The translations under genes were made by a program, and so were the position numbers. From Candidatus Saccharimonadota bacterium (GTDB lineage Bacteria; Patescibacteriota; Gracilibacteria; UBA4473): a DNA stretch of 32,000 bases. Every line of letters begins with the position of its first letter. Positions within the stretch are counted from its first letter, which is position 1. The stretch spans positions 210,001 through 242,000 of the forward strand of contig JAUIFI010000001.1 of the NCBI GenBank assembly GCA_030429505.1. Direction: 5' to 3'. The notes beneath the pieces were generated by a model that saw only the letters and a program-made list of their open reading frames with translations, did not search any database and was not told the DNA's origin. Positions 4,707-7,535 of the stretch are shown one piece after another.

Positions 4707-4952
4707 ATGCTTAGGTCAAAGCTTATATCAATACTTGATTCAATGTTTGGGTCAATAAGAGTAAATCAATGGATTTGCCTTATTGCGGGATTATCTTTCG
4801 TTAATATGTCTTTTTTAGACTTCCGTACTTCTTGGGGAGGTATACTTGGAATAGTATTCATGGGAATAGGATACATACTTGCGATTTCTGCTACTTTCTT
4901 GATCTGGGAACTGTTCAAAAGGAAAACTGGATGTTCCCATGGAAACGGTTAA
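4707..4952 (+). CDS. Small membrane protein (81 aa, 2 predicted TM helices)
   Basis: The ATG at 4707 is preceded by AGGAGA at ~4694-4699. Hydrophobic segments are WICLIAGLSFV and GGILGIVFMGIGYILAISATFLIW. A strong terminator follows. The upstream GTG at 4608 lies only ~12 nt after the -10 element and is unlikely to be the start. Confidence 0.6.
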   Translation: MLRSKLISILDSMFGSIRVNQWICLIAGLSFVNMSFLDFRTSWGGILGIVFMGIGYILAISATFLIWELFKRKTGCSHGNG

Positions 4953-4964
4953 GAACAAAACAGC

Positions 4965-5001
4965 AAACAGCAGCGAGAGGTAAAACTCGTTGCTGTTTTT
5001 A
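4965..5001 (+). terminator. Rho-independent terminator, possibly shared with the convergent minus-strand gene
   Basis: AAACAGCAGCGAG-aggtaaaa-CTCGTTGCTGTTT forms a 13-bp stem with one G.U pair, followed by a T-run to 5001. The reverse strand also leaves a T-rich tail. Confidence 0.8.
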
Positions 5002-5120
5002 TTATAAAAACAAGGCTTCTTCCTCAGAGATCCTTCGTTCCTCAGTCTCGCTGTACAGCGGGGTCGGGATATCAAAAACGGAAGAGGAGGGATAGATATC
5101 TGTTCCTGTGCTTTTTTATC

Positions 5121-6239
5121 TTATCGCCGTTCTAAAAACTCACAGAAACCTAAAATTTCCTGTTTTTGAACTTTTTTCTTGAGTGACTGGACTGTATCTC
5201 CTTTCTCCACCAAAACTTTCCTTTGTAGAACCGCTTCTCCAGCATCAATCTGAGCGGTTATCCTATGAATCGTACAACCAGTATACCGCTCTTCATATTC
5301 CAAAACTTTTTGATGAACTTCTGTGTCAGCTAGCCCTGCAAATTTCGGCAGTAAAGATGGATAGACATTTAAAGTCGTTGTTCCAAATTGTTCACAATAC
5401 AAAGGCGAAAGAATCCGCATCCATCCCAAAAGAAGGACGAAATCAGGATTATGCTCCCGTAAAATATTAATCAACGCTCGATCATACTCTTCCTGACTTT
5501 CTCCATCTCTCGGTTCAACTACTTCAATATTAGTAATACCGGCTTTTTTAGCTTTTTCCAATGCCTCACAATCAGGCTTATCTGTTACAAAGACCGTAAA
5601 TTCAACATTTGGAATTCGACCACGTTTCTGTGCATCCAGTAATCCCTGAAATGTCGTTCCAGCTTGAGAAGCAAAGACGGCAATACGTTTTTTTGAAGGG
5701 GCTGAAGGGAGGAGTGACTGAAGCGTCGTCACAAGTTTTTTCGCTTCAAGAGAACTATCTCCTTTGAGATCAGGAGTAAGCTCTATCTCGGCAATCGCCT
5801 GATAAATGCCCTTTCGTTGTTGCCACATCTGATCAATTTCTTGTGCGAGAGATAGAGAAGGATTAATCCTCATTCGCTTTTTTTCTTTTTCACTTCCAAG
5901 AAGAAATGAACGAACATCTTTAAAATCAGGGTTGAGCCAAGCAAAAGTACCTGTTTTTTTCAAATTTTGTAGATTTTTGGAATTTTCAATAGTACCGTCA
6001 CCAGTAGATAAGATTCCGGAAAAATTACGACAAAGATCATGCGCGACTCTTTGTTCTATTTCTCGAAACACCTGCCAGCCGTGTTTCTCAACAAAATCAA
6101 GTAAAGGTTCTTCAATCAGAAACTCAATTTCTTCATCGATATCAGCAAAAGGAAGATTATTAAGGTGTGCAAGTGCTCTCCCAAAATGAGATTTCCCTGA
6201 TCCTCTAAATCCTATCAAAACGATATTTGATTTCTTCAC
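5121..6239 (-). CDS. Fusion protein: N-terminal shikimate-kinase-like P-loop kinase domain plus C-terminal PurN-like (GAR) formyltransferase domain with an atypical active site
   Basis: N-terminus: IVLIGFRGSGKSHFGRALA (Walker A), FADIDEEIE and STGDG, matching the AroK layout. C-terminus: RIAVFASQAGTTFQGLLDA, DFVLLLGWMRILSP, LNVYPSLLPKFAG and GCTIHRITAQIDAGEAVLQ, which align with E. coli PurN (VVVLAGFMRILSP, LNIHPSLLPKYPG, VHFVTDELDGGPVILQ). The PurN His108 position is Tyr here. Confidence 0.8.
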   Translation of the reverse strand: MKKSNIVLIGFRGSGKSHFGRALAHLNNLPFADIDEEIEFLIEEPLLDFVEKHGWQVFREIEQRVAHDLCRNFSGILSTGDGTIENSKNLQNLKKTGTFAWLNPDFKDVRSFLLGSEKEKKRMRINPSLSLAQEIDQMWQQRKGIYQAIAEIELTPDLKGDSSLEAKKLVTTLQSLLPSAPSKKRIAVFASQAGTTFQGLLDAQKRGRIPNVEFTVFVTDKPDCEALEKAKKAGITNIEVVEPRDGESQEEYDRALINILREHNPDFVLLLGWMRILSPLYCEQFGTTTLNVYPSLLPKFAGLADTEVHQKVLEYEERYTGCTIHRITAQIDAGEAVLQRKVLVEKGDTVQSLKKKVQKQEILGFCEFLERR

Positions 6240-6323
6240 CCTTCGCTTGTATCATAATCCACGTCTAAAATCAAGTATTCTCTTCAGCTTTTCAAAAAAT
6301 AATAAAGATATAAAAATAAAGAC

Positions 6324-7535
6324 ATGAAAGGAAAAATTTTCAGCATCATCACACTTCTATGCATCTCTATTCCGACAACCTTTGCCTTTGAATTCGAAGA
6401 CAAAGACGACATTCCTCAGTGGGCACAACACGCGGTAGAACATGTTCGAGATGAGAATATAATGAAAGGTTTTGGTGATAGAACCTTCCGCCCTAAAAAA
6501 GCTCTTAATCGAGCTGAAGCAGTTACTCTACTCCTGAGAGCCAAAAATCTTGAATATGATGAAATACCGGTTCAAGACGCATTCGTAGATGTTCCAAAAG
6601 ATGCTTGGTTTGCCAAGCCAATATCCAAAGCTATTGAACAAGGATGGATAGAAGGTTTTTCAGATGAAACATTTCGACCAGGTCAATTAGTCAATAAGGC
6701 AGAATTTGCTACACTCATTAAAAGAGCATATAGCCTAGAGAGAGAAGAAAATCCTGGGTTTTTAGATGTTCCTTCTAAAGTATGGTTTGCTAAGCCTGTA
6801 TTTTCACTTGCAGCAAATGATTTAATTCGAAACTTATCGAGAAACTTTTTTCCAAGTGAGGCTATGACTCGAGATGAAACCGCTTGGATTATTTCAGAAA
6901 TACTTCGTAAACCAAGACTTACTGGTACTTCCAAAATCAATGAATTTGAAGGACGAAATCAGAGAAGCTCTCGAGAGATAGCTATCAAACCAAAAAATTT
7001 TAATCCTAATAAACAAGGATATGATATTGAGCGTAAAGTTCTTCTTTTCACATCCGTACGTGAAGATCAGTCATTATCAATTACGCGAACAGATGATTGG
7101 ACCAATGTGGGAAAAATAAGAATACAAAACAAACTAGAAGATAAAGCTCAAATTCATGCAATTGATTTAAAACTTCGTTTTGAAAACACAAGTATTGGTC
7201 CAGTTTCAAACTTTATTGTTCGATTAAAAGGAAATCAGGGCTTTCTTCATGAGATTCCAGTTACCACTACCGGTAGTATTTTCTTAAGTGGTATAGACGT
7301 GACTGTAGAGCCGCAGGGTGAAATATTTTGGGACGTAGATCTCAAGCCTATAAGCGAGCAAATTTTCTTTGGTGATAGCGGAGAAGGGAGCGTATCTCTT
7401 TTTCAAGCAAATGCGTCTATGGTGGGTAGTGCCAAAGCAAATACGGAAAGAGTATATAGTGGATTTCGAATTGCTCCAGTATCATTTGAAGATGGTCTCA
7501 GAAAGCTTACTCCCTTTATTTTTTCCCCTCAATAA
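6324..7535 (+). CDS. S-layer homology (SLH) domain protein 1: signal peptide, three SLH repeats and a beta-rich C-terminal domain
   Basis: MKGKIFSIITLLCISIPTTFA is a signal peptide. The three SLH-like repeats are FEDKDDIPQWAQHAVEHVRDENIMKGFGDRTFRPKKALNRAEAVTLL, FVDVPKDAWFAKPISKAIEQGWIEGFSDETFRPGQLVNKAEFATLI and FLDVPSKVWFAKPVFSLAAN...MTRDETAWII. Confidence 0.85.
   Translation: MKGKIFSIITLLCISIPTTFAFEFEDKDDIPQWAQHAVEHVRDENIMKGFGDRTFRPKKALNRAEAVTLLLRAKNLEYDEIPVQDAFVDVPKDAWFAKPISKAIEQGWIEGFSDETFRPGQLVNKAEFATLIKRAYSLEREENPGFLDVPSKVWFAKPVFSLAANDLIRNLSRNFFPSEAMTRDETAWIISEILRKPRLTGTSKINEFEGRNQRSSREIAIKPKNFNPNKQGYDIERKVLLFTSVREDQSLSITRTDDWTNVGKIRIQNKLEDKAQIHAIDLKLRFENTSIGPVSNFIVRLKGNQGFLHEIPVTTTGSIFLSGIDVTVEPQGEIFWDVDLKPISEQIFFGDSGEGSVSLFQANASMVGSAKANTERVYSGFRIAPVSFEDGLRKLTPFIFSPQ

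Follow-up and report, generated by a model that had tools for sequence, protein, structure and literature searches.

We analysed a 32,000-nucleotide stretch (hereafter the window; contig JAUIFI010000001.1, positions 210,001 to 242,000 of the forward strand, assembly GCA_030429505.1) from the genome of a Candidatus Saccharimonadota bacterium that GTDB places in the Gracilibacteria, and focus on a minus-strand gene encoding a fusion of a shikimate kinase (AroK) with a PurN-like glycinamide ribonucleotide (GAR) transformylase, two enzymes whose pathways are both missing from this genome. The open reading frame (ORF) runs from a GTG start codon at position 6239 to a TAA stop codon at positions 5121-5123 and specifies 372 amino acids (Table 1). 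Gracilibacteria use genetic code table 25; the ORF is free of TGA, and codes 25 and 11 yield the identical protein. Two Pfam domains were detected, that is SKI (PF01202) in residues 12-159 (E = 4e-27; 95.6 bits as compared to a cut-off of 22.1) and Formyl_trans_N (PF00551) in residues 184-365 (E = 8e-38; 130.5 bits). AlphaFold2 returned a confident model of the fusion protein (predicted local distance difference test 92, predicted template modelling (TM) score 0.89), with which Foldseek matched the PurN half to GAR transformylases (TM score by target ~0.74-0.88) and the kinase half to shikimate kinases (~0.8). Together with the NCBIfam matches described below, these hits confirm the AroK-like and PurN-like domain assignment made in an earlier note on this DNA, which had been written from the letters alone.

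Positions 4900-6500 were recovered with zero differences in a second assembly (Logan contigs, ~42x depth). This rules out an assembly slip and includes the TAT codon whose read support the earlier note had wanted checked. Two public runs registered under different studies (2021, 'metagenome'; 2023, 'biofloc metagenome') contain the same 23,154-bp Logan contig at depths of 42.6 and 42.3; they probably stem from a single data set that was submitted two times, possibly that of the source sample, and hence do not represent an independent sample. Among the public runs, none was listed as an RNA data set holding the sequence, which carries no information on expression. A promoter and terminator scan around the gene gave no minus-strand promoter match upstream of position 6239, with counts at the level of shuffled sequence.

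Table 1. Features of the shikimate kinase-PurN fusion gene (positions in the window; residues of the encoded protein)
Feature	Position	Strand	Basis
Whole ORF, 372 aa plus TAA stop; orphaned orthologue of the shikimate kinase-PurN fusion of the family	5121..6239	-	
Shikimate-kinase (SKI) domain plus C-terminal helix, residues 1-175	5715..6239	-	Pfam SKI 12-159, alignment to solved AroK, Foldseek
Walker A P-loop GFRGSGKS, residues 10-17, intact	6189..6212	-	
G-D-G, residues 80-82, at the shikimate-binding GGG loop; Asp81 is the changed residue	5994..6002	-	Aligned to TGGG of solved kinases
Lid R-M-R, residues 122-124; family consensus R-P-R, hence P123M	5868..5876	-	
PurN-like formyltransferase domain, residues 184-372	5124..5690	-	Formyl_trans_N, TIGR00639, Foldseek
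AAT GTC TAT, Asn291-Val292-Tyr293; Tyr for the catalytic His (E. coli His108)	5361..5369	-	
GAT, Asp332, equivalent of the catalytic Asp144 of E. coli PurN, retained	5244..5246	-	

For the PurN half, the NCBIfam models ranked PurN (TIGR00639, 144.8 bits) far ahead of PurU (64), Fmt (49.6) and ArnA (43). The score just misses the TIGR00639 cut-off of 150.1, which five of six canonical orthologues pass with 151.6-161.4 bits, the sixth reaching 143.6. In the phmmer alignment to solved PurN chains, LNVYPSLLP lies gap-free on LNIHPSLLP of the E. coli enzyme, placing Tyr293 (codon TAT, positions 5361-5363) on His108, and no shifted histidine is available. The earlier note was thus right that the histidine is replaced by tyrosine and that the aspartate of the triad (Asp332) is kept; Asn291, the counterpart of Asn106, and the folate loop GWMRIL are retained as well. 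The replacement is a single transition, and another genome of the family, G240, also has tyrosine at this position. Because the equivalent histidine touches the oxygen of the formyl group and matters for catalysis throughout the 10-formyl-tetrahydrofolate (THF) enzyme family (PMC4388273; PMC3261824), H293Y would be expected to cripple formyl transfer.

The kinase half aligns to solved AroK chains, and the motifs quoted for it earlier, GFRGSGKS, DIDEE and TGDG, were all found. Lys16 of the P-loop is unchanged in 38/38 orthologues, and the window protein retains D-x-D (D33/D35) as well as both shikimate-carboxylate arginines (R59 and R142 equivalents). Two changes concern the substrate loop and the lid. 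Residue 81 is Gly, Ala or Ser, never Asp, in orthologues whose kinase is needed, and the GGG loop of working orthologues tolerates Ala or Ser at its second or third position, again never Asp. Judged from these alignments, G81D and P123M probably impair phosphorylation of shikimate. The window protein scores far under every NCBIfam AroK/AroL equivalog cut-off, which likewise applies to orthologues that are the sole kinase in genomes with aro genes. The Pro-to-Met change in the lid takes at least two nucleotide changes and arose independently in the window genome and in genomes G185 (L057) and G269 (L058) of genus g16; in G240, too, Met precedes the conserved lid arginine. This repetition could be chance or a common alternative state of the lid.

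We then consider the pathways to which the two halves would belong. The window genome is a single contig of 1,023,206 bp, 94.7% complete, and profile searches of this contig returned no match to purD, purM, purH, aroC, aroE, aroB or formate-THF ligase. The aroA model gave just 84.9 bits as compared to a cut-off of 287, a match taken to be a MurA-type paralogue. The fusion protein is therefore an orphan of both pathways, as neither shikimate nor GAR is made in this lineage. FolD, SHMT and an Fmt-like second formyltransferase are present, so that formyl-THF is still made and used. The Fmt-like protein, identified by look rather than by family models, keeps NIHFSLLP and the aspartate and thus serves as an internal control. 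In the two closest relatives, G192 and G289, purD sits between genes whose orthologues adjoin in the window genome; there, purD and a 124-amino-acid ORF of the relatives (L068:8567-10326, L070:8920-10245) have given way to a gene of ~200 codons (C1:418529-419167), which appears to encode a DedA-like membrane protein according to a reading of its translation, not a domain scan. A search of the syntenic gap for a purD remnant yielded nothing above noise. Thus, the purD locus has been replaced, not pseudogenised.

The relatives present a different picture. The earlier note had expected the shikimate and purine pathways to be missing, which is correct for the window genome, whereas purD occurs in 41/42 other genomes of the family (36 above cut-off) and aroC in 33/42. 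G103 and G240 likewise have neither pathway, and their fusion ORFs are intact. The fusion is the sole SKI domain in most genomes with aro genes and usually the sole PurN.

The note had also treated the fusion as an oddity; in fact it is a family-wide orthologue. In the protein database, more than 100 full-length homologues with 45-70% identity carry both Pfam domains, the named ones being Candidatus Gracilibacteria. A survey of 301 genomes of the class confined the full-length fusion to the window's own GTDB family, in which 40/40 sampled genomes gave a match, full-length in almost every case; in the other families of the class, PurN is a separate protein of ~200 amino acids. Full-length sequences were recovered from 38 genomes of the family and fragments from several more. 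The window protein is colinear with its orthologues and 60-70% identical over 372 residues to those of more than 30 family genomes, the nearest, from G192, reaching 70% over the full length. We conclude that the fusion originated in one Gracilibacteria family and is fixed across it. The gene is monocistronic, and its neighbours are kept across the family: a divergent gene for an SLH protein upstream and convergent genes for secreted proteins downstream. A literature search around shikimate kinase found no paper describing an AroK-PurN fusion, though annotation pipelines do name it. In one genome, G112, a likely thrC gene (TIGR00260 match; L041:8129-9556) begins 12 nucleotides after the fusion on the same strand. 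This adjacency, together with a hom_kin_desulfo match of 59.9 bits (cut-off 197), prompted us to consider homoserine kinase as the identity of the kinase half; the candidate was rejected, as just 12/43 genomes of the family have thrC and its presence does not follow the conservation of the kinase motifs.

To relate the catalytic motifs to the genomic need for each activity, the 38 orthologues were extracted and aligned. An intact PurN triad (N291/H293/D332) is found in 31/31 genomes that have purD but lack a second PurN; the triad is degenerate in all seven others, namely the three genomes of genus g16, G164, and the three genomes without purD, that is the window genome, G103 and G240. All four of the g16 and G164 genomes possess an intact stand-alone PurN with NVHPSLLP. 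Likewise, the R-P motif of the kinase lid is kept in 23/23 genomes that have aroC and no second SKI protein, and lost in the remaining 15/15. The best tree requires at least three changes of state for PurN and at least seven for the lid, and all contrasts are concordant. The catalytic motifs of the two domains have been lost independently, each following its own pathway. The correlation between need and motif is strong descriptive evidence, not a formal test, and argues that this family relies on the fused domains as its functional AroK and PurN. In the relatives, the protein is accordingly what the earlier note had listed as the mundane outcome, simply a fused PurN with a normal NVHPSLLP, usually the only SKI and PurN protein of the cell; this does not hold for the window genome.

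Several further observations concern the genomes with altered or duplicated domains. In the g3 genomes G027, G063 and G210 (L028, L031, L034), the P-loop reads GKA, with Ala at the Mg-binding Ser/Thr position; other P-loop variants are G-S-K-K-K in G103 and G-K-E in G240, and all of these genomes have a dispensable fused kinase. A second, stand-alone shikimate kinase adjoins aroC at G027:C1:329062-331510 and on G171:C36, G185:C41, G269:C121, G198:C66 and G234:C35; some of these aroC matches are split in two inside a single open frame, possibly owing to an insertion or a divergent segment. The second PurN of G164 (L065, G164:C35:70200-73800) is the C-terminal end of a 404-residue stop-to-stop frame and may thus have an N-terminal extension or a fused domain.

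How strongly the orphaned copy is still constrained was judged by 101 reference sites that are invariant in the 22 orthologues needing both activities (50 in the kinase domain, 51 in the PurN domain). The window protein keeps 97 of them and departs at four (G43E, F101W, P123M and H293Y), G81D being a fifth change at a nearly invariant site. Canonical singleton lineages depart at one to seven of the 101 sites, mostly through conservative changes. Hence, the number of changes in the window protein is normal, the kind of change is not: H293Y, the sole change among the 51 PurN-domain invariants, strikes a catalytic residue, and all three kinase-domain changes fall within the 11/50 invariant sites that are also altered where the kinase is dispensable (P ~0.008, post hoc). 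Overall, the window protein is better conserved than the majority of orthologues sampled: its identity to the nearest genome is 70%, whereas the median of 27 sampled orthologues is 56.6%. The terminal branch measures 0.34 versus 0.25-0.29 for the sister lineages (G103, 1.23; G240, more than 1.4), and the slight extra divergence toward outgroups equals that of neighbouring genes, leaving no fusion-specific rate acceleration. The ratio of nonsynonymous to synonymous rates (dN/dS) is unusable on the branch to the window genome, given the saturation of synonymous sites at a protein identity of 70%. Genus g16 has both activities in duplicate and a dead PurN site in the fusion; its dN/dS is roughly 0.04-0.10 in both domains, as in canonical pairs. 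By these measures of sequence conservation, the window protein is not in general decay.

The explanation that we favour, with a probability of roughly 0.6, is that the window copy of the AroK/PurN fusion was orphaned, that its canonical catalysis lapsed and that it has been kept for a role independent of both pathways. That is, in most relatives each half would do its textbook job, usually as the sole shikimate kinase for chorismate synthesis and the sole PurN for de novo purine synthesis. When the lineage of the window genome deleted both pathways, constraint would have lapsed on those residues that serve just these reactions, namely the general-acid histidine of PurN (His to Tyr), the middle glycine of the shikimate loop (Gly to Asp) and the lid proline (Pro to Met), and canonical catalysis in the window protein is very likely weak or lost. 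The remainder of the protein would still be held by purifying selection, matching those relatives that have stand-alone genes for both activities and nonetheless keep the fusion at a dN/dS of ~0.05. The gene thus appears to be kept by selection for a role outside both pathways, a role that would predate this lineage within the family. It may draw on the conserved kinase core (Lys16, Asp35, Arg142) together with surfaces peculiar to the family and would not involve formyl transfer to GAR; nucleotide or ligand binding and a regulatory or partner-binding function are candidates. The suggestion of the earlier note that this is a repurposed enzyme can be upheld insofar as selection still seems to act on the orphaned protein, and fails insofar as the family fusion is a normal AroK/PurN in most relatives.

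A broader proposal is that a third function, independent of both pathways, explains why the two unrelated enzymes stay joined and why the fusion is retained in at least four lineages (the window genome, G103, G240 and g16) in which the textbook activities are useless or duplicated, the gene is intact and purifying selection is seen where measurable. We regard the chances for and against this proposal as about even. Such a function would rest on the invariant kinase core together with the motifs G-W-Q, H-D-x-x-R-N, E-N-S-K-N, G-R-I-P and L-Q-R-K, and would be the single job of the fusion protein in the window genome.

Several points weigh against a retained, pathway-independent role. Counting strongly supported branches only, the family provides one independent contrast per trait, too few for significance, and the site-overlap test, like the lid R-P motif, was picked post hoc. 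The dN/dS values of g16 are rough, with dS near saturation, though dN is far below dS. As the databases searched hold no relative closer than 70% identity, no date can be put on the loss of the pathways along the long terminal branch, and the picture would be the same had it happened very recently. Moreover, no set of catalytic or binding residues is kept in both domains over all degenerate lineages, even the Ser/Thr of Walker A being lost in some (GKA, GKE), so that a single shared third function would have to be partly non-catalytic. Finally, the conserved gene neighbourhood is uninformative and gave no functional clue, neither a partner gene nor an operon.

A rival view is that the gene is a freshly orphaned, functionless relic that now evolves neutrally, with H293Y, G81D and P123M as the first random changes on the way to pseudogenisation and deletion. 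Both pathways are indeed gone, the changes hit catalytic or substrate positions, one of them is the single transition that G240 shares, and the lack of a close relative leaves the time of the loss uncertain. However, the reading frame is intact, 97/101 invariant sites are conserved with no more changes than in canonical lineages, and the substitution rate shows no acceleration specific to the fusion. Random decay should also spread over structural invariants, whereas the observed changes are restricted to sites tied to the canonical reactions. A fresh loss is likewise difficult to reconcile with the disappearance of at least seven pathway genes and the replacement of the purD locus without remnant, and in three other lineages the fusion has long outlasted the need for it, with purifying selection wherever this could be measured. 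We therefore consider a relic unlikely, though worth keeping in mind.

Lineage-specific repurposing, in which the protein would act on a new substrate by phosphorylation combined with formyl or acyl transfer and Tyr293 would be adaptive, appears considerably more doubtful. The conservation of the protein despite its orphaning fits such a scenario, and with Asn291, Asp332, GWMRIL, the P-loop, Asp35, Arg59 and Arg142 in place, ATP and folate could still bind; 10-formyl-THF should be available given FolD, SHMT and the Fmt-like protein. Yet just five positions separate the window protein from working orthologues, and three of the five are altered again in lineages that have simply ceased to need the kinase, a pattern of relaxation, not of redesign. 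Coupled kinase and formyl or acyl chemistry on one substrate, as the earlier note had proposed, is unsupported and unlikely because, throughout the family, motif loss in one domain is independent of that in the other. Furthermore, the histidine is required for the transferase and hydrolase reactions of the formyltransferase family alike (PMC4388273). A partner gene or operon is missing as well.

That the protein still functions as a conventional AroK/PurN, using shikimate or GAR acquired from host or prey cells, is very improbable. The fold and the majority of the binding residues are preserved, and Gracilibacteria are thought to depend on other cells, but the products would be dead ends, with no aroA or aroC to use shikimate-3-phosphate and no purM or purH to use formylglycinamide ribonucleotide, the catalytic histidine is missing, and the TIGR00639 score lies just under a cut-off that five of six canonical orthologues pass.

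A comparison with known systems places the orphaned fusion in context. The C-terminal half shares its fold with E. coli PurN (TIGR00639, PF00551) and is 27-35% identical over ~180 residues to solved chains, with the equivalents of Asn106 and Asp144, the SLLP turn and the folate loop kept. It differs from PurN in the tyrosine in place of His108, in the sub-cut-off score and in the kinase domain fused in front; in a genome without purD, purM and purH, it has neither a substrate nor a use for its product. Similarly, the N-terminal half has the P-loop kinase fold of AroK/AroL (PF01202) with Walker A, D-x-D and the equivalents of Arg59 and Arg142, whereas it carries GDG for GGG and R-M-R for R-P-R in a genome without aroA, aroB, aroC and aroE. 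The closest counterparts are the related Gracilibacteria fusions, annotated as 'phosphoribosylglycinamide formyltransferase' or 'shikimate kinase/...PurN', which are colinear, 60-70% identical and share the same synteny; the pathway-bearing relatives keep NVHPSLLP, GGG (or GAG, GGS) and R-P-R, while the window copy has changed all three. Formyltransferase or shikimate-kinase modules joined to another domain are also found in AroK-AroB, the AROM polypeptide, PurN-PurH1 of Halobacteria and PurU, which combines an ACT domain with a formyltransferase (PMC3261824). Those fusions, however, join steps or regulators of one pathway, whereas the Gracilibacteria fusion joins two unrelated pathways. A shikimate kinase acting outside its pathway has a precedent in E. 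coli AroK, for which Vinella et al. in 1996 reportedly described a second, kinase-independent activity in mecillinam sensitivity; for the fusion, this is at most a lead.

Taken together, our data correct the annotation of this gene: the pipeline name phosphoribosylglycinamide formyltransferase would lead metabolic reconstructions to credit the window genome with steps that it cannot use. The family as a whole amounts to a natural experiment, in which the motifs of each half are kept where the fusion is the sole provider of the activity and eroded where the genome has lost the pathway or possesses a stand-alone paralogue. Very small genomes normally lose useless genes fast. The persistence of the fusion in lineages that require neither activity any more, intact in each of them and with low dN/dS in the one lineage tested, thus points to a hidden role of the shikimate-kinase/PurN scaffold.

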